DNA from: a virus
Taxonomy: Duplodnaviria > Heunggongvirae > Uroviricota > Caudoviricetes
IMG/VR virus record: IMGVR_UViG_3300029705_000040
Location: 102,209 to 164,204 of that record
Reading direction: 5' to 3' (one strand)
DNA: 61,996 nucleotides
Part shown: positions 21,092 through 38,294 of the stretch, one piece after another
How positions within the stretch are numbered: position 1 is the stretch's first letter
How the letters are laid out: every line of letters begins with the position of its first letter
Translations under genes and position numbers: made by a program
Notes under the pieces: generated by a model
What the model saw: only the letters and a program-made list of their open reading frames with translations
Told to the model about the DNA's origin: nothing
Databases searched by the model: none

Positions 21092-22642
21092 ATGATGACA
21101 GCAACAGAGCTAGCAGCTAAAAGACAGTTGCTAGACATTCTCAACAAACAGGGCTATCCAACATATTCTAGATTACTCGATCATTTTCATATAAACCTTA
21201 CTAATGACCCCGAAGTTATTGCTTTTATGGAACCTGGTAAAGGTAGAATAGTTTTAAATAGAGGTTTAGACTTAGAGCAAGTTTCTATGATTGTTAGACA
21301 TGAAATATTGCACGAATATTTATCTCATCAATTACGTATGGAAAGACATAAAGGTAAAGATAAATGGGATAAACGTACACCTCAAGAGCATGAAAGAGCT
21401 AATATGGCTGCTGACTATGAAATCTCAAATAGAGGTTATACTGATGCAGATAAAATAACTGCTAGAAGTATTATGCTTAATGGTCAGCTTTTGCAAGGCT
21501 TAGTTACTGATATAGATCATCCAGATTGGGTAAACCTTTCTATGGAAGAGATGTATGACTTGCTTGAAAAAGAAATGAAAAATGAAAAGCAAGAAGCTGG
21601 TAAAAAGATTGTCAGAATCGGAGATAAAGGTGATCAAGCTACTCAAGATGCAGAAGCTGCTCAAAGAGAAGCAGAAGCTATCATTGATGATGCTGACGAA
21701 ATAATTATGGACCCATCGGCTTCGCAAGAAGAAAAGAGCGAAGCAGAGCAAGCTAAAAAAGTAGCTCAAGCGGCAAAAGATCAAGCAAAAAAAGCTGGCG
21801 AGCAAGCTCAAGCAGAAACTCAATCTGCAGATGATCAATCTGATGCAGATAAACCAGCAGAAAATAATAATGATAGCTCTTCTAAAAATAATCAATCAGC
21901 TAATCAAGATGGACCTGTTTTTAGTAAAGATACAGAAGGTAAGTTAGATAAGATAGCTGAAAGAATAGCGAGAATAAATAAAGCTTTATCTGATGTTCAG
22001 CTAGGTGATAAAATAAAAGATGAGACTGCTAGTCAAATTGAAAGAGAAAAACAAATAAAAATAGCTAGAGAAACAGCTAAGTTTAGAAATGACCCATTAA
22101 GACGTTTTGTAGATTCGCTTAATCAATTTATAAGAAAAGAAGTTGGTGTTGGTAGAGGTAAATCTTATGGTAGAATAAATAAGACCTATGCTAACACTCC
22201 GATTATCAGAGCTGGAATAACTAGAAGAGCTGAACAACATATTCCGCTTATAAATGTTTATTTCGATGCATCAGCATCATGGGACGAAGCAAAAATTGCA
22301 GTAGGTAAACGTGGTGTAGCTACACTTAATCAATATGTTCGTCAAGGTAAACTTAAAATAAAAACATATTATTTTGGTGACCATGTATCTGAAAAGAGAT
22401 CGGAAGTTTCTGGTGGTGGGACTGGAGCTATTAGAGAGATTTTTCAACATATAAAAGATACTAAAGCAGATAATGTTGTTATAATGACTGATGGTGATAT
22501 GGATAATCAAGGTGGATCTGTTTCAATTCTAACTGTTCCTGGGGCAGTTTGGTTTTTATTTGTAGATGATGATTGTGATAAATTAAAAGATAATTTACAT
22601 GGGCAAAAATTAACTAAAGAATTTTTCATAAAATCAAAATAA
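21092..22642 (+). CDS. Metallopeptidase-like (HExxH) plus vWA protein (DUF2201-like architecture)
   Basis: RHEILH...ANMAADYEI; A/E/Q-rich linker; VYFDASAS...GGGT...VIMTDG. Confidence 0.8.
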   Translation: MMTATELAAKRQLLDILNKQGYPTYSRLLDHFHINLTNDPEVIAFMEPGKGRIVLNRGLDLEQVSMIVRHEILHEYLSHQLRMERHKGKDKWDKRTPQEHERANMAADYEISNRGYTDADKITARSIMLNGQLLQGLVTDIDHPDWVNLSMEEMYDLLEKEMKNEKQEAGKKIVRIGDKGDQATQDAEAAQREAEAIIDDADEIIMDPSASQEEKSEAEQAKKVAQAAKDQAKKAGEQAQAETQSADDQSDADKPAENNNDSSSKNNQSANQDGPVFSKDTEGKLDKIAERIARINKALSDVQLGDKIKDETASQIEREKQIKIARETAKFRNDPLRRFVDSLNQFIRKEVGVGRGKSYGRINKTYANTPIIRAGITRRAEQHIPLINVYFDASASWDEAKIAVGKRGVATLNQYVRQGKLKIKTYYFGDHVSEKRSEVSGGGTGAIREIFQHIKDTKADNVVIMTDGDMDNQGGSVSILTVPGAVWFLFVDDDCDKLKDNLHGQKLTKEFFIKSK

Positions 22643-22653
22643 GGAAGATAACT

Positions 22654-23316
22654 ATGCATTTAACAGACGCTTTGCAAGATGAAATGTTTATACAAAATTT
22701 AGATAATCAGAACTTCGAAGCATGTTATGAAACGCTAGAAGAAACTGAAAGGTATTAGCTAGCTTTATTTTTAGCAGAAGAAGGTCTAGATCCATTAAAA
22801 GATCTAGACTATATTCCTGATGTTTTATTTTCACATTTATCTTTCGAAACTTTTAATATTCCAGATAGAATTAAAAAGATAGGTAAGCATTCTTTTTCAC
22901 ATAATGATGACCTTGAGTATATAACCTTACCAGATAATATTGAGCTTATAAAATCTTATGCTTTTTATAATTGCAAAAATCTAAAAGAAATAAATATACC
23001 TCAAAAAGTTAAAAAAATAAGTTTCTTCTGTTTTGGTGATTGCGAGAGTTTAGAAGAACTAACTTTACCCGAAGGTATTAAAACCATTGAGCCATGGGCT
23101 TTTTCATCTTGCTTAAATCTTAAAAAGATCTATCTACCAAAATCTTTAGAGCAAATAGAGGCAGCTGCTTTTAATGGTTGTAAAAACTTGAAAGATATTT
23201 TTTATGCTGGAACGATAGAAGAATGGAAGCGAGTATTTAAGGGTAAATCTATTTTTAGAGATGTACCAACTAGACTGGCTAAATGCTCTGATGGTAAAGG
23301 TTTGTTGAGGTAGTAA
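22654..23316 (+). CDS. BspA-type leucine-rich repeat (LRR_5) protein with shared N-terminal module
   Basis: One internal TAG, ends TAG-TAA; repeats such as ITLPDNIELIKSYAFYNCKNL and LTLPEGIKTIEPWAFSSCLNL. Confidence 0.85.
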
Positions 23317-23320
23317 TATA

Positions 23321-23977
23321 ATGCATGAAAATATATAGAAAAAATTAAATTGGTATCTAGATAATGAAACTTTTTGTGACCTTCTAGATAAGCATAATGT
23401 GGTAGATTTATTTGCGGGAGTTGATGAATTCGATATTCCATGGCTTATAGATATACTAAAAGAAGAAGGTGTACAAGTACCACAAACATATTTAAATATG
23501 TATGATTTATCTAGATCACAATGTCCTGTTTTTTCTAAAGTAAATATACTAAATCAAGAAGAATTAGGTTTTAATCTAGAATTACATCTAACGCCTGATT
23601 CTCTTTTTATTATAAAACTAATTAATTTAATCTATTATAAAAATCATTCTGGATTGTTTAATAACATAGATAATCTAGAAACTTTTGGGGATGTTTTACT
23701 TTTAAATGATTTTAATATAGAATATGCTAGTATCTGTATTATTTTAGATAAGCCCTTAGATCCAACTAATATAACAGGATATAACTTACCAAAAGTGCGG
23801 ATAGTTATAGATGGTTTAGATACTATTCTAAGTTTTGAAATTTATGATAGATCTTTTTATGATGCAACTAGTGATTTTGAATTTGATGAAACTGGTTATA
23901 GTTATAAAGTAAACATAAATAAGTTTATACAATCCCTTAATGAAGCATTCGAGTTTATAAACTCTATGAGTATATAA
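23321..23977 (+). CDS. Paralogue-array protein (shared N-terminal module)
   Basis: MHENI(TAG)KKLNWYLDNE aligns with ENIQLRLNKYLENE of the next gene. Confidence 0.8.
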
Positions 23978-23987
23978 GGATTAATAT

Positions 23988-24629
23988 ATGTTTAATATAA
24001 ATAATGAAAATATACAATTGAGATTAAATAAATATCTAGAAAACGAAGAGTGGGTAAATGCTTTAGATTCTTTTGATCTCGAAAAAGTATTTAAGTTATC
24101 TAGTGTAGTAGATTATATCTGGTTATGTCATCTCTTAGAGGAAGAAAACTTAGAAATACCTCATATTTATAATAGATTTAAAGATATTAAAATACAGCAT
24201 GTAGATAAAAACTCTTTCAAATTATATCAAGACGTAAGCTCTAGAGAAGATGGGCCTATGTTTGAGTATGAAGTTAATTTAAAATCAAAAGCAGAAACAT
24301 TAAAACTTTTACATCTAGTATATTTTACTGATTTATTAGATGATTATATCTATTGCTGTGATTTAGATTTAGAAACTGATATAGAAATACAAAATATAAA
24401 TCAAGCATGGTTTGCTGTAGATAGTTACACAATAGACATTGATAGATTTAATGATTTAAATGCTTATAGTAATATAAAATTACATTGCTTAATAAAAAAT
24501 TATATGACTACTATAATTATTCCAGATAATAAATCTTTCTATAAACATAAAGGGTCTTATTATACAGTAGATAAAGAAGCTCTCATAGATGCAATTAATA
24601 ATTTTATCGATGAGTTAAATAGGTGGTAA
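23988..24629 (+). CDS. Paralogue-array protein
   Basis: ORF track; NALDSFDLEKVF...LLEEENLEIP. Confidence 0.8.
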   Translation: MFNINNENIQLRLNKYLENEEWVNALDSFDLEKVFKLSSVVDYIWLCHLLEEENLEIPHIYNRFKDIKIQHVDKNSFKLYQDVSSREDGPMFEYEVNLKSKAETLKLLHLVYFTDLLDDYIYCCDLDLETDIEIQNINQAWFAVDSYTIDIDRFNDLNAYSNIKLHCLIKNYMTTIIIPDNKSFYKHKGSYYTVDKEALIDAINNFIDELNRW

Positions 24630-24631
24630 TT

Positions 24632-25246
24632 ATGGATATGACTATTGAAGAATTATTACTCAGTGAAGATGGAATTAAAGCTATAGACGAGGAAAACTTT
24701 ATAAAAGCTTATGACTTGCTTGAAGAATTTGAAAGACCTAAACTCACCAAGTTATTTTATAGTGAAAATATTGATCCATTAAATTATATGTGTCTTATTC
24801 CTAAACGTTATATGGATAAAAGTTTCAATAAAAGATTGATACGTATTCCAGAAAATATAGTTTTAATAAGCCAGGAAGCATTTATAGGATGTGATAACAT
24901 TTGTCAAATAGATTTTTCAGAAAGAATAACTCGGATAGGTATGTTAGCTTTTTCTGATTGTACTAACTTAAAAGAATTAACTTTTCCTAGAAGTCTTGAA
25001 GTATTAGATCAATGGGCCTTTACTGGTTGTAAAAATCTAAGAGAAATTCATTTCGAGAAAGATTATTTACGTTATATAAGTAATTATGTATTTGGTGAGT
25101 GCTCTCAGTTAGAAATAATAACATATACTGGAACTATTGATGAGTGGCGAAAAATAGATATAGCAGGTGACGCTTTTAAGGGTGCTAGGACAAAAAATGT
25201 GCGATGCGCAGATGGCATATTTTCTATTTATGAGGATGAGGACTGA
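24632..25246 (+). CDS. BspA-type LRR_5 protein with shared N-terminal module
   Basis: IRIPENIVLISQEAFIGCDNI, LTFPRSLEVLDQWAFTGCKNL; YTGTIDEW cap. Confidence 0.85.
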   Translation: MDMTIEELLLSEDGIKAIDEENFIKAYDLLEEFERPKLTKLFYSENIDPLNYMCLIPKRYMDKSFNKRLIRIPENIVLISQEAFIGCDNICQIDFSERITRIGMLAFSDCTNLKELTFPRSLEVLDQWAFTGCKNLREIHFEKDYLRYISNYVFGECSQLEIITYTGTIDEWRKIDIAGDAFKGARTKNVRCADGIFSIYEDED

Positions 25247-25920
25247 TGAGTCAAAATACAAATAAAAAAACTGTAGAGCTTCTAAATAAATGGTTAGCTA
25301 AACCAGATATAATAGCGTTAATAGATGCAGGAAATATAAAAGAAGCGATATTAAAAACATTATAGCTTCCAGCATTTGATATTAATGCTATTAGAGCTTT
25401 ATTAGGATTATTTTTAGCAGAAGGCTATACCTTAGTAGACTTAATTGCAAGACCTTCTGTAAATATACCTTTAGTAGAAACAGCAGACGTACAGCTAGAG
25501 AATAATGGAGAATATAAAGCATTAAGTGTTAGATATGCAGCTGATGTAATGAGTGATCCAGAATTAAATTTATTTTTAACACTGCTTCATGGAATAAAAT
25601 ATACTGATTGCAAATTGCATTTTTGGATTTATGCTCCAGATGATTCTAGAATTTATCCAGAAGCATTTCTTTATTGTGATTCATTATTTGTGACAAGAAA
25701 TTATGCTATAAAAGATATAACTGATGAGATATCTGATTATATAATCACATATCCAGATAATACTTACTCCGAGGATGAATCAGTTACTGTATATGATATA
25801 GATGGAAGAGAAGACACTGCTCATGATATTTTAGAGCAACAACTTAACATACATATATCAGAAGCGTGGCACGAAATTTTTGAAAAGAATAACTATAGAG
25901 ATTTAGGAATAGTTTTATGA
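25246..25920 (+). CDS. Paralogue-array protein (TAG read as Gln)
   Basis: ATG overlapping previous TGA; one TAG; in frame with ORF-track 25549. Confidence 0.75.
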
Positions 25921-26429
25921 GCACATATTTAACTACTTATGAGGAATATCAATTTCAACATGTTTTGTTAGATAATTATCCAGAATTATTTGACACATAT
26001 CAGTTTGAAAAAATATATGAGTTAGCTACAGAAAAAGGTTTAGGTCAAGACCTTATAGCTAAAATTTATCCTCTCATGTTAGATTTCGGAGTAAATGTTT
26101 TAGATCATATTAAAAATGTTCCTGAACATTTTGGTTATAATTCGGATATTAAAGAAATAAGATTTCCAAACAATGTAGAAAAAATCTTGCCTTATGCTTT
26201 TATGGGTGCTGACTTAGAAAAAATTATAATAGAAAATCCAAATATTAAAATAGACGATGATGGATTTAAATGGTGTGAGAAAATAAAAGAAGTTATTTAT
26301 AGTGGTACATGTAAGCAATTTCATGACAACAGATTAAGTGCTGCTTTCACGCAGTGGACAAATGAGAATTTACTTATTAAATGTACAAATGATAATATAA
26401 TTTTTAACTTAAAAGGATCTAAAAGATGA
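25917..26429 (+). CDS. Paralogue-array protein with short LRR_5
   Basis: IRFPNNVEKILPYAFMGADL; EVIYSGT cap. Confidence 0.75.
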   Translation: MSTYLTTYEEYQFQHVLLDNYPELFDTYQFEKIYELATEKGLGQDLIAKIYPLMLDFGVNVLDHIKNVPEHFGYNSDIKEIRFPNNVEKILPYAFMGADLEKIIIENPNIKIDDDGFKWCEKIKEVIYSGTCKQFHDNRLSAAFTQWTNENLLIKCTNDNIIFNLKGSKR

Positions 26430-27034
26430 GAGCTGATGTAAGCGAAAAACTTAATAAAATGCTAGAAGATTCTGATTGCACAGGTTTTTTAGATTCTGGT
26501 GAAATATTAAAAGCTTTAGAGCGAGCTATAAGTAAACAATATTTTGAGCTAGAAGACTTATATGATATAGTCAGAGAATTAGTTTTATGTGATGTTCCAT
26601 TAAAAGATATTTTTGGTGAACCTAAAACAGAATTAACATTAAGAGTTAATTTTGATGCTGATGATCAACACGGTGTTGCTGGTCATGCTGTATATTGTTT
26701 CGATCCAATGCCATGCAATAAAGAAACTTATATCTTATTAGCTTATATGTTTGGTTATGCGTCTATCTACACTAGTAAATTATTTGTTTTAGATTTACCA
26801 TCAAATGGAATAACTTCTGGTAGGTTTAAAATTTTTGAAGATGATAACTTACTAGATCAATTTCTAGTAGATAAACAAAAATTTTCAGTTGTTTTAGCTG
26901 GTGGAACAGACCTTGATCCAGTTTATGAACTAGATGGAAAAGTTTCAAAAGCTAAAACATTAGTATTAGATACTCTTGATTCTGCTATAAAAGAGTTTTA
27001 CGAAGATCATGTAGAGACTAATAGGTGTATATAA
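26426..27034 (+). CDS. Paralogue-array protein
   Basis: SEKLNKMLEDSDCTGFLDSGEILKAL. Confidence 0.75.
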   Translation: MRADVSEKLNKMLEDSDCTGFLDSGEILKALERAISKQYFELEDLYDIVRELVLCDVPLKDIFGEPKTELTLRVNFDADDQHGVAGHAVYCFDPMPCNKETYILLAYMFGYASIYTSKLFVLDLPSNGITSGRFKIFEDDNLLDQFLVDKQKFSVVLAGGTDLDPVYELDGKVSKAKTLVLDTLDSAIKEFYEDHVETNRCI

Positions 27035-27049
27035 GAAAGGAAAGATAGT

Positions 27050-27487
27050 ATGGCTATAACTAAAGAATAGTTAGAAGAATATTTATATGAGATTTCTGAT
27101 GATTTAGATGAAGGAAACTTAGATAAAATTTATTAGCGTAATGATCCTAGAAATGAGTGGTTAACTGATGAGCTATATTATATGGGAATAGACCCACTAG
27201 ATGGGTTACCCTGGGTTTTAAATCACATAGCTGAAATGGAGTTAGCTATATAGCCAGAAGAAAGCACTTCTTATAATGGAGCTACTCTAGATTGGCTTAT
27301 AGAAGGTTTTGGCAGCTCAGCTTATAGATATTTATATTTGTATCAATTTAAGCATAACCCAGTATTTAAATGTGAAAGATTAGAGAAGAGATATAGTTGG
27401 TGTCAAGATAATGATAATGATTACTATATATGTCTTGCACAACATTGGGATATAGATAAATTTAAAGAGATAGTAGATGGTAAATAA
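27050..27487 (+). CDS. Paralogue-array protein (3 TAG read as Gln)
   Basis: Absent from ORF track; ATG 27050 to TAA 27485; C-half aligns with the next gene. Confidence 0.8.
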
Positions 27488-27498
27488 GGAAATATATT

Positions 27499-27957
27499 AT
27501 GTTAACATTATCAGAAATAATAGATAAATTTGCTGAGTAGATTGATAATGATCAATTTGAAGAGATTTTAAAAAGCAGTGATTTAGAACTAGTAGATAAA
27601 ATTGACTTCGTTGATTTCTTATACGAAGAATTAAAAAGTCTAGGTAAAAGTTTATACTCTTATTTTCCTAATTTTGATAGAGAAATAAATGCTATGAGTA
27701 ATCAGCTACAAACCTTAGCTACAGGTGCTAGTTATTGGGGTGAAAGATTGTGGTGGCTAATAGAAGGTGAGGGACAGGCTCATAGAGCAGCTTTATATCT
27801 ACATTACTATCAAAATGATTCATACTATTTGGTAGAGAATCTAGAGGAAAAATATGCGTGGTATGGCTCAGGTGATGATTGGTATATTTGCAGAGCTGAT
27901 AGATGGGATATAAATAGATTTTATAGGGCTATGGATGCTTGCTTAGCCGAGGAATAA
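27499..27957 (+). CDS. Paralogue-array protein (1 TAG read as Gln)
   Basis: ATG 27499 after GGA RBS, in frame with ORF-track 27694. Confidence 0.8.
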
Positions 27958-27959
27958 AG

Positions 27960-28361
27960 ATGAAATTTCGATTAGTAGAAGATATAGTAACAGAATCAGA
28001 TTTAACTGATAAAAATTTAATAAAAGAATTGCAAGATAAATTTGGATCAGATTTCGATAGCAAACCTTTATGCAAAGAAGTTACAGAATATATCTCTACT
28101 AAATTTGGTGTAAAAGGTTTATATTATACTGTACTAGTCCTATCAAAAGAAGATGGATTAATATCAGCAAATGGCCACTGTGTAATTTATCATAATAATA
28201 GACTTTATGACTACACATCAAATCAATATTGCAATTATTCTGGAATAGAAAAATCAGAATGTCCCAGAATATTGTATTTCGATAAAGAAATATCAGATAA
28301 GCTAGGTATGAAATCATACTCAAGCGGTAATTATATAGTTTGTGTATCGGAGCATGTATGA
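27960..28361 (+). CDS. Small protein with MKFRLVE start and Cys-His-Asp motif (papain/transglutaminase-like fold candidate)
   Basis: LCKEVT...NGHCVIY...LYDYTSNQY. Confidence 0.5.
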   Translation: MKFRLVEDIVTESDLTDKNLIKELQDKFGSDFDSKPLCKEVTEYISTKFGVKGLYYTVLVLSKEDGLISANGHCVIYHNNRLYDYTSNQYCNYSGIEKSECPRILYFDKEISDKLGMKSYSSGNYIVCVSEHV

Positions 28362-29002
28362 CAGAATTAGATAAAGCTTTAGATGAGCTACTTTCAAATA
28401 ATGATTTCTCAACAGCTGTAGATAGCGGTGATTTAAATACTGTTTTAAAAATATTATTTAATTCTAGGACTTCTGGGATAGTTGAGCATTTTATAGATAT
28501 TATAATTAATGAGGATTCTGATTATTTTAATAGAAACTTACTTAATGATGCAACTAGATTATCACCAGATGATATAAGCAATAAATCTAACAGATACTCT
28601 GGATTAGATATTGATAATAAAAGATTCTCTGATAACTTAAAAATATTGCATGCTTTAAGATCAGTAATGATACCTGAAGGTAAAGCTGAAATAAACAGCG
28701 GTATGAAAGATACTGATTGCTATGTATATTTTTATACTACTGTAAATATATAGTTAAGTAAGTTGCAACTTTCGGAAACTTATTTGAGAATACCCTTTGT
28801 GGGTGGAGCTTTAACTTATGGGTATATAATTCCAACAGAGAATTGTTATTCTAAAGTTGCATATGGTGTTTTTCAAAACTTACCTAAAGAAGATCAACAT
28901 CAAATTGCTAGTTATTTATGTCAAAGTATAAATGCTTTCTATGATTTCGCTGTAGATACTGTAAGATCCTATTTAACTAGTAGAATTAAGGATAAGAAAT
29001 GA
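28358..29002 (+). CDS. Paralogue-array protein (1 TAG read as Gln)
   Basis: TAG 28751 joins ORF-track 28340 and 28763 in frame. Confidence 0.75.
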
Positions 29003-29613
29003 TTGACTTAGAAGATTTTATAATAAAGTATCATGCTCAAATAGATTCTGGTGATACAGAAACATTATGCGAATTAATAGAAGATAATTTATCTACTGAT
29101 GATGCTGCTGAATTTATAAATATGCTTTTAGAAGAAGATTTTGATATAATAAAACACTTGAAAGACATTTATCCAGTATCAAAAATATTTAATGAGTTTG
29201 TATTTATAGAAGATTTTCAAGAAAGTATTTATAATGATTTTATTAAACCACTAAATATTCCAGAAGATAGAGATGCTAAAAAATTTGGAAGATATTTGCT
29301 TAAGAATTATGCTAGTACTGGATTTGATATACATAATCCAAACAGCGTCAATGCTGGCGAATTAGTCGGTGATATTTGTGCATTACATATTGCACCATAT
29401 TTATATGAAAACTCACTATTTGCATTATTATGTGTAGAAGATGAAAAAGCTCAATCATTCGAGTTATTAAAATATTTTCCAAATAACACTATGTTAACTT
29501 TTTATAGTAAAATCGGCTATGGTTGTGATCCAGATAATATAGATAAAGAATTTGAAACATTACAAAAATAGATGAACGAGTTTGTTTCAAAATATAATGC
29601 AGAGAGTAATTAA
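28999..29613 (+). CDS. Paralogue-array protein (1 TAG read as Gln)
   Basis: TAG 29569 readthrough ends at TAA 29611, one base before the next ATG. Confidence 0.75.
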
Positions 29614-29614
29614 T

Positions 29615-30220
29615 ATGAGACTAACCGAATTTATAGATACTTATGCAGAGCTTATAGATTCTAAAAATACTTATGATCTTCTTTTTTATGCTAATATGAA
29701 CTTAAGTGATGAAGATATAAGTAAACTCACTAGAGAGCTTGACATACTAGGATTAAATATGCTTGAACACCTCAAAAAAGATAATGATGAGGTAAGATTG
29801 TTTAGTGATGATTTTACTTTAAGGGATTTGCAAGAGTATCTAAATAAAAATTTTAAACTAGAAGTAGATATAAGAGATTATTCTAAATATAACTTAAATG
29901 ATATGTTTGAGCTTCTAGAAAAATACCGAGATGATTTAGATATTACCATCTCACCTTCTAATTTAGAGCCATTTTAGTATATTGATCTATATTTAGATAA
30001 AATAATAATATCAGTGATTGTTACTGAAGATACACATTATATAAATGTGAGTTTTATAACAACCACAAATTTGTTTTATAAGATAAATCTAGATTTAGAG
30101 CATGATGCATTTTCATTAAACAGCGCAGTTGGTTATACTTTAAATAGAAATACTCTAAAAGATACTCTAGCTAGCGTGGCTGATGCATTAAAAGATTTCT
30201 TTAACTCACATTTAGCTTAA
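29615..30220 (+). CDS. Paralogue-array protein (1 TAG read as Gln)
   Basis: MRLTEFIDTYAELIDSKN; TAG 29975 joins ORF-track 29582 and 30014. Confidence 0.8.
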
Positions 30221-30232
30221 TAAGGATTAATT

Positions 30233-30856
30233 ATGACTATAGAACAATTTATAGAAAAATATGAAAACCTTTTAGATAGTAAACCATTAGATACAAAGCA
30301 TTTGTGTATTGCTATTTTAAGTGATTTAAGTGATGTCTATACATATGATTTCACTCAAATGCTTCTTGAGTCTAATGTTGATATTTTAAGTTGGTTAAAA
30401 CCAGATTTCAAAGAAGTAAAATGCTTTAATAGAGATTACTCAGTATTTAAATTTGATGATTATTTGATAGAAAATGCTTTTGTAACTTTAGATGAAGATT
30501 TTTATTCTAATTATAGTTTATTTAGTGTAATAAATTTATTAGATGACGCTAAAGCAAGTTTAAATTTACGAAATAACAGATACACAATGCCTGTTAGATC
30601 TTTTACTAATGCAAAATTTAAGTCTGGGTGTATAGGTATATTTAGGGATGATTCTAATTCTCCACCCTGTACTATTGTATTGCGTTTATAGGCTGATGAT
30701 CAAACAGTTTACGAGTTAGAGCAATCAATACCAACTAATGTTTTAAGATATCTTCCAGGAATTGGCTTTGGGCTAAACTTGCGTGAGCTAAGATAGTTAC
30801 TCATTGATTTAAATGATAAGATTACGCGCCTTATACAAACAAATTTAATAAGGTAA
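30233..30856 (+). CDS. Paralogue-array protein (2 TAG read as Gln)
   Basis: MTIEQFIEKYENLLDSK; readthrough ends TAA 30854 just before a terminator. Confidence 0.8.
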
Positions 30857-30862
30857 AAATGT

Positions 30863-30899
30863 GGACATGAGAAATTAAAAATTTATCTCATGTCCTTTT
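30863..30899 (+). terminator. Intrinsic terminator
   Basis: GGACATGAGA/TCTCATGTCC followed by TTTT. Confidence 0.7.
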
Positions 30900-30915
30900 A
30901 TTATGTAAAATGTGC

Positions 30916-30923
30916 GCTAAATT
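30916..30923 (+). promoter_or_regulatory. GCTAAATT putative late promoter
   Basis: GCTAAATTATTTG, 30 bp upstream of ATG 30953. Confidence 0.7.
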
Positions 30924-30952
30924 ATTTGTGCAATAAAATTTTGGAGAATATT

Positions 30953-31693
30953 ATGAAATTATTGAAAGAAGAATTTGAAATACATGAAACATTAAATAAA
31001 AAACTATTTGACGAAGATCATATTCTCCGCAAAGATGTAAGAAATACCTTAATGAAAATAGCTGACATGTTTGTAGGATCTATGCAAGAAGATCAAGTAC
31101 CACTAAAAGTATATGATTATTGGTTGGTGGGTTCTAATGCAGCTTATAATTATACACCAACTTCAGATATAGATATACACATTATAGTTGATATGGATAT
31201 GGGTGTCAATCCTTATATTCTTAGACTTCTTTATGATTATATCAAGAGCAGCTTTAATGATAAATATGATATTAAAGTAAAAGGCCACGAAGTAGAACTA
31301 TACTTAGAAGATATAAATACTAGCGCAGTGACTAATGGTATATATTCTCTAAAACAAAATAAATGGATTAAAGTTCCTATTCAAGAAGAGCCTAAGAAAA
31401 TAAATATAGAAGATTCTCAATTATATAAAGATGCATACAAAAAATATCAAGAATTAAAAGATGATGAAATCGAAAAATTTATAGATGATATGTATGTTAT
31501 GAGAAAAATAAGTTTAGCTAATGATGGTGAGTTTGGCGAAGGTAATTTAGTTTTCAAAGAATTCAGAAATAAAGGCTATCTTGATGATTTAAAAGATAGA
31601 AAATACGCTTATAAGAGTAAAGAATTAACTTTAGAGAAATTAGCTATTTCTTCTGCTACGCTTGATGGTGAGGAGACATGTAATGGATTTTAA
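30953..31693 (+). CDS. Pol-beta-superfamily nucleotidyltransferase with MKLLKEE start
   Basis: LVGSNAAYNYTPTSDIDIHII...HEVELYLED...EGNLVFKEFRN; true start after GGAG RBS. Confidence 0.8.
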   Translation: MKLLKEEFEIHETLNKKLFDEDHILRKDVRNTLMKIADMFVGSMQEDQVPLKVYDYWLVGSNAAYNYTPTSDIDIHIIVDMDMGVNPYILRLLYDYIKSSFNDKYDIKVKGHEVELYLEDINTSAVTNGIYSLKQNKWIKVPIQEEPKKINIEDSQLYKDAYKKYQELKDDEIEKFIDDMYVMRKISLANDGEFGEGNLVFKEFRNKGYLDDLKDRKYAYKSKELTLEKLAISSATLDGEETCNGF

Positions 31694-32318
31694 TAAAATA
31701 TTAAATGATTAGAAAGCTATTGATGCATTAGATCGAGAAAATTGGAGTATATTTTTTAATCAAATTAATTCTTTAGACTTATCGAGAGAAGATTTTTATG
31801 AAATACTTAAATTGATAGCATCTGAAGCATCCGATCAACTTTGTAATTGGGTTAACAATCTTAAAATCACAGTAACTAATTAGGATATCACATTTATTAG
31901 ATCACATTGGTCTTATGGAATTGAAATTACAGATATAACTATTTCCCATAAACTTAAATGGTTAACTTTTTTACATTCGGTTATGTTTTCCAACACAAGG
32001 TTTGGAGGATGGGCGGATAAGGATACTCGGGAAAAAATTCAAGGATTCTTTGACAAGAAATCCTTAGGAGATCCTTGTTCTGGAAATGGAGAGTTTTAGT
32101 CTATTTATTTATATGTTGAAATTCCTCTTGATAATTACTACAATCAAGTAGAATATTAGATACGGCTTTCAGAGCGGTATTACTTTAATGGATCATCTCT
32201 ATGCGGAGTTCCTAAACATCTTTTAAGTGATGTTATTAATCAGATTAATAAAAAAGTAGATAATTTAATAACTAAATTAATTGAAAAAATAAATCAAATT
32301 AAATATGAAAATAATTGA
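31683..32318 (+). CDS. Paralogue-array protein (4 TAG read as Gln)
   Basis: Absent from ORF track; MDFNKILND(TAG)KAIDALDRENW; ends TGA 32316. Confidence 0.75.
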
Positions 32319-32330
32319 AGGTAATTAATC

Positions 32331-32870
32331 ATGACTCTCGAACAGGCATTTGAAAATGATGAATTTAATTTAGCTCTAGATACTCATGATTTTCCTAAAG
32401 CATTTTCTTTTTTGGGTTATACGGATGCGGATGAAGAAAGAGAAAAGTTATTTTTACTAATTTAGGAAGAAGGTTTAAATCCTTTATCCGGATTTACTAT
32501 AATTCCTAAGCAGTTTTTAAAAACATGTTCAAAAATAATTGAGATCGAAATACCGAATAGCGTAACATTAATAGATTCAAGGGCATTCTGGTGTTGTCGA
32601 AGCCTGACAAGTGTAGTTATCCCTGACGCTGTAATAGAGATAAGTGATCAAGCGTTCTCTGAGTGTAATAAGTTAGAAGATGTAGTAATCCCTGATAGTG
32701 TAAAAATTATAGGTAGTGGAGCGTTCAAAAGTTGCTATAGGTTAGAAAGCATTAAGTATAATGGAACTAGAGAGCAGTGGAGAAATATATCCCACAGAGG
32801 TTCTATGTTCGGATATTCTAGTGAAGGTTGGAGTAAAATAATCTGCACAGATGGGGTTATTGAATTATGA
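32331..32870 (+). CDS. BspA-type LRR_5 protein with shared N-terminal module (1 TAG)
   Basis: IEIPNSVTLIDSRAFWCCRSL, VVIPDAVIEISDQAFSECNKL, VVIPDSVKIIGSGAFKSC; YNGTREQW cap. Confidence 0.85.
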
Positions 32871-33553
32871 CATTAGAACAATTTATAGATAAATATTTTA
32901 ATTATATAGATAACTTAAAATTTAAAGACTTACATAAGCAGTTAGTAGACTCAGAAGATATTTTTAAGTTAGAAGATAATGTAATTGAAAATCTGAACAA
33001 ACTATTAATAGAAGAAGTTGGAATTGGCTTATTGTACGAAGCAGAAGAAGACTCTAATTATGTTATTATAAAGAATCAATATTGCGAAGATTTATGTACA
33101 CGAAATAACAGCCCGTTTGTTTATAAATATACAAACAGAATAGATAAGAGCAGAAGTACTTTAGCTTTGTTTAATGATCTAATTGATTCTGATATTCATA
33201 CATTGTTCGATTATATTGTAGATTCTGATAATGATAAAATTAATGTATCTGACGCTAGAAGCATATTAGGTGATTATTCCAAAACCAAATCTTTAGAATT
33301 ATCTATGGATTACAGTGGTGGATTATTTTAGATAGTCTTGAGTTTTCTTTTTACATATGACGATTATGGAAATTTTAATCCTAGTATAACAAATAACATC
33401 TGCTTTATTATTAATTTACCGCAAAGTTTCGGTTACAGTTTTAGTAAAAGTTACTACGACTCGGCTGAAAATACTTATGCTATAAATGATACAGCGATTG
33501 ATACTTTAATAAAAGAGATAGATAAAAGAGTTTTAGGAGCACTAAATAAATGA
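32867..33553 (+). CDS. Paralogue-array protein (1 TAG read as Gln)
   Basis: MTLEQFIDKYFNYIDN; TAG 33329 joins two ORF-track pieces. Confidence 0.8.
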
Positions 33554-34107
33554 AATTAGTAAATTGTTTTAATAATGATACATTTATTGCGAATTTAGAC
33601 GCTCACAATATAGGTACATGCTTCTTCATAGTTGATATAGAAGATAGATATAAATTCTTTTCTCTTTTATTAGAAGATTCTGAAACTTCTGAAGAAGTTA
33701 AACAATGGCTTATCGATAATATCCATGAAGCAGATATATCAATGTTAAATACTACCCCAGATTGGCAGCATGAGTATTCTATAATTGATAGGAAAGTTAT
33801 TAAGACTGTAAATATATTAATTTCACTTAATTATGCTTTATTGAAAAATTATAAAGAAGTTGCTGATTATAAAATAGTAGATGGCAAAGTTTTTGATACA
33901 CCAATAGATAATATAACATTATCGATAGATGATCTAAATGTACCAGATCGCTTAACTGCATGTCTTTTTGGAAAAGATTTTATATATTGTGAGTTTGCAG
34001 ATGTGGTAACAATAGATATACATAATATGACAGATGATGATTTCTAGATAGAGTGTGTTAATTTTTTGAATACGTTTATTAAAGTTTTAGCTGCTGGATT
34101 ATTTTAA
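33550..34107 (+). CDS. Paralogue-array protein (1 TAG read as Gln)
   Basis: NDTFIANLDAHN aligns with DEMFIQNLDNQN of 22654. Confidence 0.75.
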
Positions 34108-34121
34108 GGGTATGATGACAT

Positions 34122-34535
34122 ATGAAATTTAAACTAGTAGAAAAATTTACAATAGAAGCGTGGCAAATAAAAGATGATGTTGTGATAAAAGGGACACTTT
34201 TTAAAGCTAATATTGAGTTAAATAATTAGCAATTCTTTTCATTCGATCAACCTGATGGAAAAGTTTATTGGATAAAAGGGTTAGATAATTGCTGCATAAT
34301 ATTTAAAGCTATCACACCTACTATTAATCCTGGCTTTATACATCAAGAATTTGAAAGAGAAATCCAAAAATATAAACCTATAACAGAAGCTAGTTTTACA
34401 GCATATGTAGATGCTAGAGGTGAGTTTGCTATTGAATTAGATTCTATTTTACATAATAAAGAATTTAAGTCTTTTGCTAGAGACTTGAAATTAACTATAG
34501 AAGATTATTATATATAGCCGGATGATGATTATTGA
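34122..34535 (+). CDS. Hypothetical protein with MKFKLVE start (2 TAG)
   Basis: Absent from ORF track; ATG 34122 to TGA 34533. Confidence 0.7.
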
Positions 34536-34553
34536 TGCAAAAGGAAATTATAG

Positions 34554-35561
34554 ATGAAATTATTAGAAAAAATAGATTTAGATTCTTTAATAGATTAGAA
34601 TATACATCTTATAGATACTGGTGATTTTGAAAAATTTTATGATATATGTAAAGCATAGCTTAAGCGAAAAGATTTAATTCTTCTTACAGATTTATTAGCA
34701 GAAGAAGGTATCGAATTACCATATTCTATTACAGGGTTTTTGTATGGAGTAAAAACATCAAGTCATACTTTAGCTTTAAGAGCACTTATTAGTCCAACAA
34801 TGTATAATGTAGGTTTCACATCAAATCAAGGTATGAAAGGTGGACATCAGATTGGCTTTGAGTCAAGAAAAGCTGCTTAGAATTATATAGATAACAATTT
34901 TGGTTCTGCTAGAGTATCGATAATTCTTCCAGAGACTGTTGCAGGTTATAATTGGAAATAGATAGAAATTCCAGGCAGCATAGCATTTGCAACAACATCA
35001 GCTATAAATTCTTTCGAACCATATATGGATCCAGATCAAAAGAAAATAAGCAGATTAAAAAATAGATATACTAATGAAATAAATAAACTTGAAAAAGAAA
35101 TCACAGCACCTGAGGAAACAGAAGATGTAAGAAATTTAACTGCTGATAAAAATACAGCTATCGCAGAAGAAATGTTAGAAAAATTAAGAAAATATGTTGA
35201 GAATACTCCGGAAGAATATTTTGTAGATCCAACCCCTGTGCGTCGTGAATTGTCTTTACTAGATGTTAAATATTTAATATCATATTGCATATCTGTCTTC
35301 CGTGATGATATACGCATTAGTTTATATATAGAATTTAATTCTGATAAATTTGCTAAAAAATTCGAGTCAGGACTTAAAAAAGTCTTTCTAGATAGCATTT
35401 ATTCGATTGAGTTTAGACGAGAGTTTGTAAATGCTAACAAATACTGGATAAGAATATCAACCCCATACCTTATAGACTCGACATCACCAGAAGCGCTTGC
35501 TATAATAGATAAGAAAACTAAAAAAGTAGAGTTGCTAAAACAAAAATTAGCAGCTATATAA
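34554..35561 (+). CDS. Paralogue-array protein (4 TAG read as Gln)
   Basis: MKLLEKIDLDSLID(TAG)NIHLIDTGDFEKFY...LAEEGIELP; in frame with ORF-track 35025. Confidence 0.75.
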
Positions 35562-35581
35562 TATGAGAAGGAAAAATAACA

Positions 35582-36955
35582 ATGGCGGATAAAAATATTA
35601 ATGTTATTTTATTAAATAGACATGATACCGATGATAACTGGGCTAATTCTAAATATCAACCTAGAAATGGTGAAATCATTGTTTATGATAATTCAGGTAG
35701 GCTAAAAGTTGGTAATGGGAGTGCTACTCCAGATCAGCTTCCATTCCTTGATAAAAACTATTATTTGACATTGAATGGTAATAGACTTATTTTTTCTAAT
35801 GATGGGGTTGGTGCTGTAGCAACCGATATAACATTACCAGATAATGATACTCTTTATTATGCTAAAGCAAACGGTGGCTTAGTCTTAGATTCTGATACAA
35901 AAGAATTTAGTCTAGGTAATAGCGGTGTAATAGCAGGAACTTATGAGCCTGACTCAACAAAACGAACACCACAGCCTGGTGGAATATTTACTGTACCTAG
36001 ATTTGTTGTAGATAGTCATGGTAGAATTACAGAAGCTGGAACTGTTGATATAACTCTTCCTATAGATAATGACTCAAAAGCATCTTCTGGAGATACTTCT
36101 GAGAAAATATATCTCATAGGTACAGCTGAACGCTCAGAAAGTGGTCGAATAACTTACTCATATGAAAATGCTTATGTGCAAGATGGTTATGTTTACAGTG
36201 GTGGTAAAAAGGTTTTAACAGAAGAAACTACTTTAAGTAAGGGAACTGATTCTACTAGTACTGATGAGATCGGTCCTAGTGATTCATTTACTGCTGTTGA
36301 AAGTGTTGCTGTAGATAATCATAAAATAACTGAAACAAAAAAGACTTATACAATTAAGCCGGAAACTCAATTAAGCAAAGGTACTGCAGCAGAAACAGAT
36401 GGATCAACTTTAACTTTTGGTGGTGATTTAAGTGTTATGGATAACACAACTGTTTCTAATCACATTATTACTGATCATAAAGTAAAATATAAATTACCTA
36501 GTGAAACAGCTATAAGTACTTCTGATGCTACTGGAACCGCAGAAACGCCTGCTCATGGTGATTCTATTACTGTAGTCACAAATGTATCGAAAGGCACTGG
36601 TAGCCATAATATATCTGTTGAGAAAACTAGTATAACATTACCTACAGCACCAGGTGTCGCAGTTTCTGATAGTACTGCTGGAACATAGACACCAAAACAT
36701 GGTGGAACTTTTACAGCTATAAGTGAAATAACAGCTGATGGTCATGGTATAAAGAAAAAGACAACAACTTATACACTTCCAACAGAGACAACAGTAACTA
36801 TTAGCACAGCTAAAGCTGGTACAGCTACAGAGTTAACTCATGGAAACACTTTTGAAGCTATAACTGGAATAGAAGCATCTGGACATACTGTAACACCAAT
36901 TGTTACTACTTTCACGCTCCCATCAGGTGTAGACGATGGTGAGTTAACAGAATAA
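35582..36955 (+). CDS. Tail-fibre-like protein with five ~46-aa repeats (1 TAG)
   Basis: N-terminal HDTDDNW...PRNGEIIVY...LKVGNG anchor motif; repeats ending (Y/I/F)-x-(L/I)-(P/K); TAG 36686 lies inside repeat 4. Confidence 0.75.
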
Positions 36956-36984
36956 CTAAACATAAAATTAAATAATTAAAATAA

Positions 36985-37021
36985 TAACCTCTAGATAATA
37001 AGCTAAATTATTTAGAGGTTA
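36985..37021 (+). promoter_or_regulatory. Hairpin with GCTAAATT late motif in its loop and right arm
   Basis: TAACCTCTAGATAAT-AAGCTAA-ATTATTTAGAGGTTA; motif at 37002-37009. Confidence 0.65.
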
Positions 37022-37039
37022 CTTTTATGGGGGTATATT

Positions 37040-37651
37040 ATGAATAAAGCAGAAGCTGAAATATTGGAAAATTATCTTAAAGATGCTAAGTATTGCGAAG
37101 CTTTAGACAATAAGAAATATGGTAGATTATTCTAGTTAACTGACGAAGAAGACTTGCATTTACTTATTGAGCTTCTAGAAGCTGAGAATGAGGATATTCC
37201 AGAAGAATCTATTTCTGATTTATTTTCTGATTATAAAGATTTTATGTTAGACCGTAAATATAGCTGGGATGTATATTTTGATTTATTTATGGGTTTTCCT
37301 TATGAGCAGCAATATGATTTGAGAGATTATGATATTTCAAGAAATCTTTTAGATGATATAGCAAAAAGTCTGCACGAAGATAGAGTTTTCGATAATGTAA
37401 TTAATCATGCTGATAACTCAGATATCCCATATATAATGTCTATTTCAGCTAGAATAGTTGAAAACGATGATTTAATTATTTACTGCTATGTTATAAGCGA
37501 AACAGGCGAAGATTTAGTAGAATTAAAACGTGCTTTACCTACTTATAAATATTTCAAAGGTATACCATATGTAGGCTATGGTTATAATGAGTCAGCTATA
37601 AAGAAAATTATAGAAGCGGTGTTTACTAAAGTAGGAAGATATTTGGGGTAA
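37040..37651 (+). CDS. Paralogue-array protein (1 TAG read as Gln)
   Basis: ILENYLKDAKYCEALDNKKY...LLEAENEDIP; in frame with ORF-track 37154. Confidence 0.8.
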
Positions 37652-37655
37652 TCTT

Positions 37656-38294
37656 ATGCAATTAACTGATAAACAAAAAGAAGTATTAAATAGATACCTC
37701 ACAAAAGATGATTGGGTAAAAGCTTTAGATAGCAGAGATTATTCTGAGTTATTAAAATTAACAGCTACATATCATATAAATCTAGTAGCTTAGATGCTAG
37801 AAGAGCTAGAGTCACCAATACCTAGAGATGAGATAAGAAAATTATTTGTTGGCTTTACTGGGGTACATTTTGAGCCAGAATATGATAATATTGAGTATGC
37901 TGATATTTTAGTAGATGATACTAAGAGAAGAATTAAAGTTAAAATTCCTAAAGCAAAGCTAGAGAAAAATATTGATAAGTTAGTTAGAAGAAATATAATT
38001 GCTTATTATTCTTTTGCGTATGAAGATTCTCTAGATTATGTTGAAAATAAATATTTAGATGATATATGCACTGTTGTTAGTTATGTTTATGTAACAATAG
38101 GTGGTGATCTAGAATTTCATTTCGATTTAATAGATTCTAATGGTATAACACATGCTACTTTGCAAGATGAACATCCAGCAGCACCTTTCTTTATTGGTGT
38201 AAATGGAATTGGCTACGCTACAAACTTAGATGAAATAGTAAAATATGCGGAAAAGCTTTTTAAAGATTGTTTAAAAGTACTTTTGGAGGATTAA
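37656..38294 (+). CDS. Paralogue-array protein (1 TAG read as Gln)
   Basis: VLNRYLTKDDWVKALDSRDY...MLEELESPIP; in frame with ORF-track 37794. Confidence 0.8.

Follow-up and report, generated by a model that had tools for sequence, protein, structure and literature searches.

A tandem array of twenty phage paralogues with a shared N-terminal module, encoded beside a MoxR-type ATPase and a vWA-peptidase protein

Gene content of the array

The window considered here is a 61,996-nt stretch of the 164-kb genome of a large gut-type phage in which TAG is read as an amino acid and which encodes two tRNA-CUA genes. Within it, 20 tandem genes (positions 22654-38294, all on the plus strand) open with a small helical module, and each of their starts heads an open reading frame when TAG is translated as Gln. 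They are preceded on the same strand by a gene for a MoxR-type AAA+ ATPase (19820..21064; 414 aa, one TAG codon) and a gene for a fusion of a HExxH metallopeptidase-like and a vWA-like part (21092..22642; 516 aa). Intergenic spacing in the array ranges from -11 to +20 nt, with the exception of 96 nt before a nucleotidyltransferase gene and 84 nt before the gene at 37040. TAG is present in 16 of the module genes, and in ten it lies inside the module; the original prediction had put the number of genes that need readthrough at fifteen, which is one too few.

The claim that all 20 genes open with one helical N-terminal module, here of about 60 aa, is supported by an HMM built from the N-termini of all 20, which matches every gene at 40.7-70.3 bits, the best non-family score being 15 bits among 1776 six-frame ORFs of the whole genome. 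In leave-one-out models, 15 of the 20 genes were regained at E<1e-3; those at 25246, 25917, 26426, 28358 and 32867 scored weakly (E 0.02-0.2), yet ranked 20-22 of 1776. Compared in pairs, the modules show little similarity (median shuffle Z 1.5), and, judged by sequence, the N-module family is a profile-level family.

The C-terminal parts are highly variable, as had been proposed: most cannot be aligned with one another, and at least three unrelated types are joined to the module. Kinship is detectable only within the leucine-rich repeat (LRR) set, between members 8 and 9 (E 1e-15), and between members 12 and 13 (hhalign 82%). The four members expected to end in LRR_5 (PF13306; Pfam gathering score 27.7 bits) are exactly those that match it, namely member 1 (22654..23316; 220 aa, two TAG; 126 bits), which begins 11 nt past the vWA gene, member 4 (24632..25246; 204 aa, no TAG; 83.7 bits), member 6 (25917..26429; 170 aa, no TAG; 37.8 bits), where a divergent module precedes a short LRR_5 part, and member 15 (32331..32870; 179 aa, one TAG; 80.3 bits). 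In these proteins, the module passes directly into the first repeat via a G-I-D/N-P-L ... I-P stretch. The remaining 16 members have no LRR match at E 0.1.

An alpha/beta C-terminal domain, confidently modelled, is found in at least six array members. The predicted ending of G-(Y/F)-x-x-(N/D) plus a helix aligns in member 11 (28999..29613; 204 aa, one TAG; G-Y-G), member 12 (29615..30220; 201 aa, one TAG; G-Y-T), which was modelled with AF2, member 13 (30233..30856; 207 aa, two TAG), which shares the domain of member 12, member 19 (37040..37651; 203 aa, one TAG; G-Y-G), and member 20 (37656..38294; 212 aa, one TAG; G-Y-A), and the outside relatives P0017 and P0054 align with it. Searches with the model of member 12 found no fold match for the alpha/beta domain, despite the very confident model. 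Member 16 (32867..33553; 228 aa, one TAG) has a divergent module and a G-Y-S motif in its C-terminal part. A Trp-rich type occurs in two copies, members 8 (27050..27487; 145 aa, three TAG) and 9 (27499..27957; 152 aa, one TAG).

The other members were recognized by the module profile and carry unassigned C-terminal parts: member 2 (23321..23977; 218 aa, one TAG), member 3 (23988..24629; 213 aa, no TAG), whose module was modelled, member 14 (31683..32318; 211 aa, four TAG), member 17 (33550..34107; 185 aa, one TAG), and, with divergent modules, member 5 (25246..25920; 224 aa, one TAG), member 7 (26426..27034; 202 aa, no TAG) and member 10 (28358..29002; 214 aa, one TAG). Member 18 (34554..35561; 335 aa, four TAG) has a long C-terminal part and a single profile match, and members 8 and 9 are two adjacent paralogues; the tandem pair once listed among the C-termini was not found.

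Several plus-strand genes inside the array lack the module. They comprise a Pol-beta-type nucleotidyltransferase (30953..31693; NTP_transf_2, 22.7 bits), which is a conserved companion, two small genes that begin MKFRLVE (27960..28361; 133 aa) and MKFKLVE (34122..34535; 137 aa), and a fibre-like gene (35582..36955; 457 aa) with a weak Mtd_N match of 18.6 bits, below the cut-off, followed on its 3′ side by a terminator-like hairpin (36985-37021). Three of the non-member genes have an MKLLKE-type leader in common.

The ATPase/vWA-peptidase pair and its neighbours in other phages

The gene heading the array encodes a MoxR-class AAA+ ATPase, as predicted from its AAA_5 match (37.1 bits, cut-off 22) and from the Walker A (GEAGTGKTS) and Walker B (LFLDELNR) motifs seen in the alignment; the genes adjoining the vWA gene in loci L001 and L003 encode proteins 34-35% identical to it. 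The second gene encodes a predicted metallopeptidase-vWA protein with an N-terminal HExxH domain and a C-terminal DxSxS vWA-like domain. DUF2201_N matches six of six homologues of this protein (27.1 bits in this phage, cut-off 23.2) and the vWA-like DUF2201 four of six, the protein of this phage being without a DUF2201 match at E 0.5; HEILHE and DxSxS (DASAS) are invariant over the six. A tblastn search with the vWA protein against 50,697 GenBank phage records returned nothing at E 1e-5, which places the pair of this phage on a distant branch. A look-up by sequence gave no similar stretch in the other genomes of the survey.

A MoxR/peptidase-vWA pair is already known from jumbo phages (Iyer et al. 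2021, PMC7824862); that paper proposes for it a role in virion assembly with peptidolytic processing, citing the MoxR-vWA pair that serves tail assembly in Acidianus two-tailed virus. The pair examined here is the same two-gene machine in a similar late or structural setting. However, the passages of PMC7824862 consulted name no third component, and in the literature we found, these passages included, none is described. The suggestion of an undescribed system is thus only partly sustained: the AAA+/vWA pair is described, and what is new is the module plus LRR_5 third component and its arrays.

When the module profile was run against 1.84 billion representatives, 73 matches were obtained, nearly all of them 150-260 aa long with the module starting at residue 1, and they belong to uncultivated, mostly large, gut and rumen phages. 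LRR_5 lies above the cut-off in 48 of 70 outside members, in a BspA-type form of about 200 aa; module plus LRR_5 is the ancestral and common architecture, a point overlooked by the original prediction, and the array appears to be an expansion of a gene present in many phages. These proteins and the four LRR_5 members of the array resemble BspA-type surface proteins (PF13306), but they are small, carry the N-module and have no hydrophobic leader or anchor visible by eye, and 16 of the 20 array members are without LRR. In some of the outside members, the module is preceded by an additional MKLLKE-type leader.

In the first two outside contexts inspected, AAA+ and vWA genes whose products are 34-37% identical to those of this phage adjoin arrays of module plus LRR_5 genes. 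Across 19 diverged loci, the AAA+ and vWA genes are never more than 6 kb apart; module genes lie within 10 kb of the pair in 13 loci, none being seen within that distance in the other six, and in 11, including this phage with its 11-nt gap, a module gene immediately follows the vWA gene. The commonest order, MoxR-type AAA+, HExxH-peptidase/vWA, then module plus LRR_5 protein, is preserved at 34-50% protein identity across many lineages, and in this phage the third gene is amplified to 20 copies. Arrays of 4-14 copies adjoin the pair in six other loci, and in L001 and L023 the two machine genes flank the array. Module genes are present in every one of the five whole phage records searched that contain the pair. 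Module genes far from the pair are found as well (8 of 12 in G001, 7 of 13 in G003 and 4 of 4 in G004), and two arrays on contigs of 10-15 kb have no pair within reach. Of the partners originally named for the module (virion, AAA+/vWA machine or host target), the AAA+/vWA machine is the one backed by synteny, in 13 of the 19 diverged loci.

Dedicated third proteins are a feature of cellular MoxR-vWA ternary systems, including CbbQ-CbbO-Rubisco, NorQ-NorD-NorCB, BchI-BchD-BchH, RavA-ViaA and the vWA-MoxR-VMAP conflict systems reportedly described by Kaur et al. in 2020. Like these systems, the phage loci group genes for an ATPase and a vWA adaptor with a gene for a third, dedicated protein. In the cellular systems the third protein is one enzyme or effector, whereas in the phage loci it is represented by a multi-copy family in which a constant domain is combined with varied binding domains, and the vWA protein also has a predicted peptidase domain.

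On this basis, we tentatively favour, at somewhat less than even confidence, the view that the 20 genes encode an enlarged family of clients or adaptors that would serve the MoxR-vWA-peptidase machine at a late stage, probably during virion morphogenesis. The third gene of the AAA+/vWA/module-LRR_5 cluster would have been duplicated into a tandem array in which the N-module was retained. The C-terminal part would have stayed LRR_5 in four copies and been swapped, or have diverged past recognition, in the others, giving for example the alpha/beta (at least six) and Trp-rich (two) types. The N-module would be the constant part by which the pair recognizes, remodels and possibly trims each paralogue, and the variable C-terminal domain the ligand-binding part that gets delivered, so that the paralogues may be alternative accessory binding proteins mounted on the virion with the help of the chaperone. 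Recognition of a constant module is proposed by analogy with other MoxR-vWA systems, where the ATPase receives a third protein by way of the vWA adaptor.

Fold and conservation of the N-terminal module

The module is predicted to be a real, independently folding domain, in keeping with the claim of a constant N-terminal unit. Modelled alone with AF2, it forms four to five helices at pLDDT 85, and within full-length member 12 it reaches pLDDT 93.3, the whole model having a pTM of 0.85. This pTM suggests that the module may pack against its own C-terminal domain instead of hanging free. Scanned alone, the module has no Pfam family; full-length members gave no NCBIfam or PHROG match across it, and Foldseek against PDB and AlphaFold DB returned nothing at E<1. 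The best VIA-align Z was 4.3 for the module and, for the full-length model, 5.1 to a RecX repeat, both below the level that the notes of the tool deem meaningful for helical folds. A match to an already characterized domain, which would have explained the family otherwise, was looked for, and none appeared in the family or fold libraries searched. An F-box identity was also considered in an hmmscan of Pfam with 67 modules, run at E up to 5; F-box is not among the 25 of 47 families listed, each of which was hit by a single module only. For TPR, other helical-repeat and Death-like adaptor domains, no listed Pfam family was shared between modules; by eye, the outside matches P0046 and P0067, with 'ALLDSGDYEAAYALLEEL' repeats, resemble a TPR-style hairpin.

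One Asp is invariant across the 20 array modules, and 62 of 67 modules in the wider family have D there. Single-copy genes adjoining the vWA gene have E, R, K, K or N at this position, which makes the Asp unlikely to serve as a MIDAS ligand. The best-conserved positions of the module are mostly hydrophobic and look structural, and this counts against docking, as a docking surface should conserve exposed residues. The same observation is in keeping with an explanation that we consider doubtful, namely that the module is a structural N-cap or folding nucleus of a fast-evolving family whose paralogues work independently (soluble binders or inhibitors, for instance), and that they are linked to the AAA+/vWA pair because of common timing or because a block of genes happened to be inherited together. 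The compactness of the model (pTM 0.85) and the many module copies dispersed away from the pair point in that direction, as does the continuity of the module with the first LRR repeat, which is like that of N-caps in other LRR families such as the internalin caps. However, the module also precedes a non-LRR alpha/beta domain and is therefore not an LRR cap by necessity, and a gene order kept at such low protein identity would hardly be expected unless linkage were selected for.

In 12 of 17 ortholog-like pairs, conservation is higher in the module than in the C-terminal part. The module tree does not resolve, so that domain shuffling, which the word 'interchangeable' in the original prediction implied, is not separable from divergence. 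A constant N-terminus, a variable remainder, tandem order and late-type genes would also be expected of packaged internal proteins that are ejected into the next host, the module being a capsid- or virion-targeting domain that loads varied effectors and is removed by the peptidase. T4 internal proteins are of this type: their capsid targeting sequence is a peptide of about 10 residues cut at (L/I)-x-E, the site type of the T4 prohead protease. The phage array shares with them a constant N-terminus on unrelated small proteins and a variable tandem region; (L/I)-x-E lies near the module end in 15 of the 20 array members, and an MKLLKE-type leader occurs in some outside members and in the three in-array non-member genes. 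However, the constant part is a folded helical domain of about 60 aa and not a peptide of about 10 aa, (L/I)-x-E is no more frequent across the wider family than in a control stretch (26 of 44 versus 24 of 43) and offers no family-wide cleavage motif, and the genes are linked to the MoxR-vWA pair and not to head or prohead-protease genes. We therefore set aside assignment to the T4-type capsid-targeted internal proteins, and regard packaging as very unlikely.

Genomic setting and possible biological role

The late role in virion morphogenesis that we propose for the client or adaptor family draws on the setting of the cluster, whose genes are rich in TAG and have fibre, neck or sheath genes next to them. 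Fibre genes lie downstream of the array in the window, and neck, sheath and tube genes, read by eye, come after the trio in L013, L022 and L024. The structural context is not uniform, given that homologues of the L013-type sheath and tube genes were not found in this genome. The nucleotidyltransferase is 50-51% identical to genes in or near the arrays of L017 and L004, and L008, L009, L020 and L024 have a homologue in the locus of the pair, at distances that range from direct adjacency to about 9 kb. The description of the array as late-expressed is suggested by TAG content and genome position only.

The late expression suggested by TAG-rich genes in the fibre or tail part of the genome, at a stage when defence is already decided, weighs against the possibility that the paralogues stay in the infected cell as host-targeting adaptors. 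Each would bind a different host protein, such as a defence factor, through its LRR or alpha/beta domain and hand it via the module to the AAA+/vWA-peptidase for unfolding or cleavage, in the manner of F-box/SCF or Clp adaptor systems. The same synteny would serve this explanation as serves the client family on the virion, and the HExxH invariant in the vWA partner, the tendency of LRR domains to bind proteins, N-termini without a visible hydrophobic leader, and a high copy number with fast C-terminal turnover, as in an arms race, all speak for it. F-box/LRR substrate receptors of SCF ligases likewise form large, diversified families in which a helical N-domain of about 50-60 aa precedes LRR or other binding domains. 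In contrast to them, the module gave no fold match and matched no F-box or other adaptor family among those listed, the setting is that of a prokaryotic virus, and the partner, if any, would be a vWA or AAA+ protein. We consider host targeting unlikely. Its fullest form, in which one MoxR-vWA-metallopeptidase machine is programmed by up to 20 interchangeable adaptors, all with one helical handle but each with its own LRR or alpha/beta binding domain, that capture different host proteins (for example defence factors) for unfolding or cleavage, is slightly less probable again, and would, if true, give bacteriophages an equivalent of the F-box/SCF substrate receptors, assembled from unrelated parts.

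To our knowledge, cells and large phages commonly encode MoxR-vWA pairs, but few of the clients have been identified. In the present case, conserved gene order points directly to a candidate client family, which comes as a ready-made set of up to 20 variants that share one constant domain. Two protein domains, the module and the alpha/beta domain, are defined that no family or fold library searched recognizes. If the paralogues are virion-mounted binders, as the favoured client or adaptor reading would have it, they would bear on the host range of uncultivated gut phages; host-targeting adaptors, if that is their role, would represent a new kind of phage counter-defence.

Array layout and the shared N-terminal module

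The window forms the final 62 kb of a 164-kb phage contig; its G+C content is about 30%, every gene lies on one strand, and many open reading frames (ORFs) stay open only with TAG read as a residue. Two neighbouring CUA-anticodon tRNA genes are located upstream of the window (genome C1:27231-27403), within a set of 35 tRNAs, their 'Pyl' label from aragorn deriving from the anticodon alone. Because these genes are present, TAG is read as sense, and because relatives also show Gln opposite TAG positions in several alignments, it was taken as Gln throughout. Separately, a 390-aa protein encoded at 5115-6287 matches phrog_1211 (E 2e-50), whose garbled label was read as PurZ-type adenylosuccinate synthetase, a match that could be a sign of 2-aminoadenine (Z) DNA synthesis in this phage.

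The array occupies 22654-38294, behind an AAA+ gene (19820) and then a vWA gene (21092), and its member genes are named here by their start coordinates. As originally predicted, it comprises 20 genes with a common N-terminal module: all twenty proposed starts open ORFs of 145-335 aa, and a profile built from their first ~70 residues gives 40.7-70.3 bits on 20/20, against 15 bits for the runner-up among 1776 six-frame ORFs from the whole genome. In a leave-one-out profile search, 15/20 were recovered at E<1e-3, and the weak members (25246, 25917, 26426, 28358, and 32867) still ranked 20-22 of 1776. At the sequence level, this is a profile-level family in which pairwise similarity is low: the median shuffle Z reaches 1.5 between modules and 0.4 between C-terminal parts. 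A single Asp residue does not vary among the window modules and is present in 62 of 67 modules overall. Two details of the prediction required correction: TAG occurs in 16 of the 20 member genes (inside the module in 10), rather than fifteen needing readthrough, and the supposed tandem pair was not recovered: no tandem-module protein was found among the window members, and 34554 has a single module.

Array genes are spaced by -11 to +20 nt, and the only larger gaps are one of 96 nt before a nucleotidyltransferase gene and one of 84 nt before 37040. The latter contains the region's only strong terminator-like hairpin (36985-37021, 15-pair stem), downstream of which lie the last two members, 37040 and 37656; a promoter scan gave a signal no higher than shuffled expectation. 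Non-members inside the array are two genes without a module match (27960-28361 and 34122-34535), the nucleotidyltransferase (30953-31693), and a fibre-like gene of 457 aa (35582-36955) with a weak Mtd_N-type N-terminus and a repetitive Thr/Ser-rich body. At the DNA level, repeats within the array amount to short stretches with 66-80% identity, located at some 5′ ends only, and nothing indicates recent gene conversion or cassettes. A megablast comparison of the array with GenBank phages found no match, word-index homologue searches returned near copies only, and ESM Atlas feature searches yielded nothing usable. Near-identical contigs derive from sequencing runs SRR24752792 and SRR24752793.

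Module fold, partner domains, and distribution

From a 67-sequence alignment, the module on its own was confidently modelled with four to five helices (pLDDT 85.4). The full-length model of 29615, a non-LRR member (pLDDT 93.3, pTM 0.85), places the helical module at residues 3-56, followed by an alpha/beta domain with eight strands that ends in a long C-terminal helix after a G-Y/F motif. The Foldseek comparison suggested alongside the original prediction was run, together with VIA-align, on the module and on the full-length model: the module had no meaningful fold match in PDB, AlphaFold DB clusters, or VIA-align wide, nor did full-length 29615 in PDB, AlphaFold DB, VIA-align wide, or BFVD, its best matches reaching E 0.005 at TM 0.2 and, on the module only, Z 5.1. 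A Pfam scan of the 67 modules revealed no family common to more than one of them, and NCBIfam and PHROGs scans of full-length members matched nothing over the module. The predicted fold also bears on the alternative that members are packaged internal proteins bearing a targeting domain. An (L/I)-x-E motif occurs in 15/20 window members but shows no enrichment across the family at large, and the constant part is a folded domain instead of a short peptide.

Behind the module, the C-terminal parts differ. Exactly four members carry LRR_5, the BspA-type leucine-rich repeat domain, as foreseen, and the anticipated G-(Y/F)-plus-helix ending corresponds to an alpha/beta C-domain alignable across 28999, 29615, 30233, 37040, 37656, and two outside relatives. 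A further type is common to 27050 and 27499, so that one module precedes at least three unrelated C-terminal types; the other C-termini have no detectable relationship to one another. The module tree built to test domain shuffling, in which 41 of 78 forks are unresolved and the regex-based LRR labels are imperfect, forces only at least two changes of C-terminal type. In 12 of 17 ortholog-like pairs, conservation is higher in the N-module than in the C-terminal part, which weakly fits a division of the sequence into constant and variable portions.

Searched against 1.84 billion representatives, the module profile gave 73 matches at E<1e-3, three of which were rejected as look-alikes of a different kind (one insect protein with allergen repeats, and two others whose repeats are of the 'ALLDSGDYEAAYALLEEL' type). 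The remaining outside proteins are 45-335 aa long, mostly 150-260 aa, with the module starting at residue 1. LRR_5 is present in 48/70 of them, making module plus LRR_5 the common form, while the non-LRR forms found by the profile are closely or moderately related to the genes of this phage itself; on one contig (L016), LRR and short non-LRR members are mixed behind the same module. A further outside protein, P0061 (L003:3300-5081, 593 aa), encoded directly after a vWA gene, consists of three complete module + LRR_5 units head to tail, from which it follows that module, LRR, and C-terminal cap act as a single repeatable unit. In a 214-kb relative, three adjacent small paralogues of 138-164 aa (L004:7138-8437) have module-like starts and Trp-rich C-terminal parts, resembling 27050/27499 by eye, and fall below the module profile threshold. 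A tblastn search with an LRR member matched only LRR parts of gut-phage records.

Conserved association with the AAA+ and vWA-peptidase genes

The 516-aa product of 21092 bears a HEILHE motif in a DUF2201_N domain, invariant among homologues, and in its family the vWA-like domain at the C-terminus invariably contains DxSxS. In the first two outside contigs fetched, module arrays adjoin an AAA+ gene and a ~510-aa gene, whose products are homologues of those of 19820 and 21092 at only 34-37% identity. Neither tblastn of the vWA protein against GenBank phages nor a related-locus search from a single vWA protein found anything. Relatives of the vWA protein were identified in 11 IMG/VR loci and in five loci on MAG contigs labelled Lachnospiraceae, Firmicutes, Prevotella, and Acholeplasmatales; three of these MAG contigs are 117-130 kb, phage-sized, and hence may be binned phage contigs. 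Together with the window, L001, and L003, they form a set of 19 loci, in all of which the AAA+ and vWA genes are no more than 6 kb apart, and in 13 of which module genes lie within 10 kb. The gene immediately after vWA is a module gene in 11/19 loci, LRR-type in all ten inspected, and in L001 and L023 the array sits between the two machine genes. In several single-copy loci, module scores are weak (14-33 bits), yet a module-like N-terminus and an LRR are clear; other loci have 4, 6, 10, 11, or ~14 units. All five whole records searched contain module genes (12, 13, 13, 4, and 1), with the largest cluster adjoining the pair in three of them and many copies elsewhere in the genome, away from the pair. 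Two individual loci appear, by eye, to carry additions: the AAA+ homologue at L005:8348-9988 (546 aa) has an extra N-terminal region that looks Fic/Doc-like, and a pair of ORFs immediately upstream of vWA at L004:8717-9860 resembles a split IS200/IS605-type TnpB/OrfB transposase, which, if so, would represent a mobile element inserted into the operon of the 214-kb relative.

The nucleotidyltransferase, a Pol-beta-type protein with a G-S ... D-I-D motif and no PDB sequence relative, has 50-51% identity among the window copy (30953-31693), L004:14043-14741, and L017:8323-9219, and is more conserved across these phages than the AAA+/vWA pair. The window copy lies inside the array, the L004 and L017 copies lie in or near module arrays, and homologues occur in the pair's locus in L008, L009, L020, and L024, from adjacent to ~9 kb off; it is possibly a fourth component of this system. 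The start MK[F/L]x[L/K][V/E]E is common to 27960-28361 (MKFRLVE), 30953-31693 (MKLLKEE), and 34122-34535 (MKFKLVE), and only five ORFs of at least 80 aa in the 164-kb genome have it, the other two being 43121 and 48138. MKLLKE-type starts are also found on a nucleotidyltransferase homologue and some module proteins elsewhere (L005, L017, P0027, P0063), and this start may be a second shared N-terminal tag.

A putative third component of a MoxR-vWA machine

In cellular MoxR-vWA systems, the vWA protein serves to present the ATPase with a dedicated third protein, whereas the candidate third component here would be multi-copy and modular. The reading favoured on gene order and this analogy is that the array is an expanded third component of the machine, which would handle each paralogue by its constant module, the variable domain being the part that binds something else.

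How the module might engage the machine may be less simple than the docking tag of the original prediction. A complex model combining Mg with the 516-aa vWA/peptidase (alignment of 6 rows) and the N-module (57 rows) gave run scores of 0.58, 0.00, and 0.00, the median being under the mark, an outcome that counts neither for nor against binding. Other MIDAS-ligand pairs use an acidic ligand at the MIDAS site, and the module Asp was considered for this role; E, R, K, K, or N stands there in the single-copy genes beside vWA, and the idea was dropped as the leading one because these genes do not keep the Asp. This weighs against a simple docking tag, as do the predicted compactness of full-length 29615 and the many copies unlinked to the pair. 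So does the conservation of mostly hydrophobic module positions, which fits the alternative that the module is a purely structural cap whose paralogues function independently; the conserved gene order, however, does not fit such a cap.

The expanded third component would probably serve late in infection: the TAG-rich genes, the fibre genes downstream in the window, and the genes after the gene trio in L013, L022, and L024 that look by eye like neck, sheath, and tube genes together point to a late, morphogenetic role on the basis of gene order and analogy. Host-targeting adaptors supplying the peptidase machine would rest on the same synteny with the pair and fit this late setting poorly.

A MoxR AAA+/vWA pair whose vWA protein has a metallopeptidase fused at its N-terminus has been described in group 2.2 jumbo phages by Iyer et al. 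2021 (PMC7824862, section 3.4.5), who proposed virion assembly and peptidolytic processing and likened the pair to the MoxR-vWA genes on which Acidianus two-tailed virus depends for tail development. Their discussion names no third component, for which the module family is a candidate here. The original claim of an undescribed system accordingly holds in part: the two-gene machine has been described in that section of PMC7824862, and the literature search found no account of this family or of a phage LRR family tied to a MoxR-vWA pair. In the libraries and literature searched, neither the module family nor the alpha/beta domain that partners it appears to have been described, nor does their conserved connection with the machine. 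Taken with the cellular analogy, the findings suggest a phage MoxR-vWA system with a multi-copy, modular putative third component, whose function is likewise putative.
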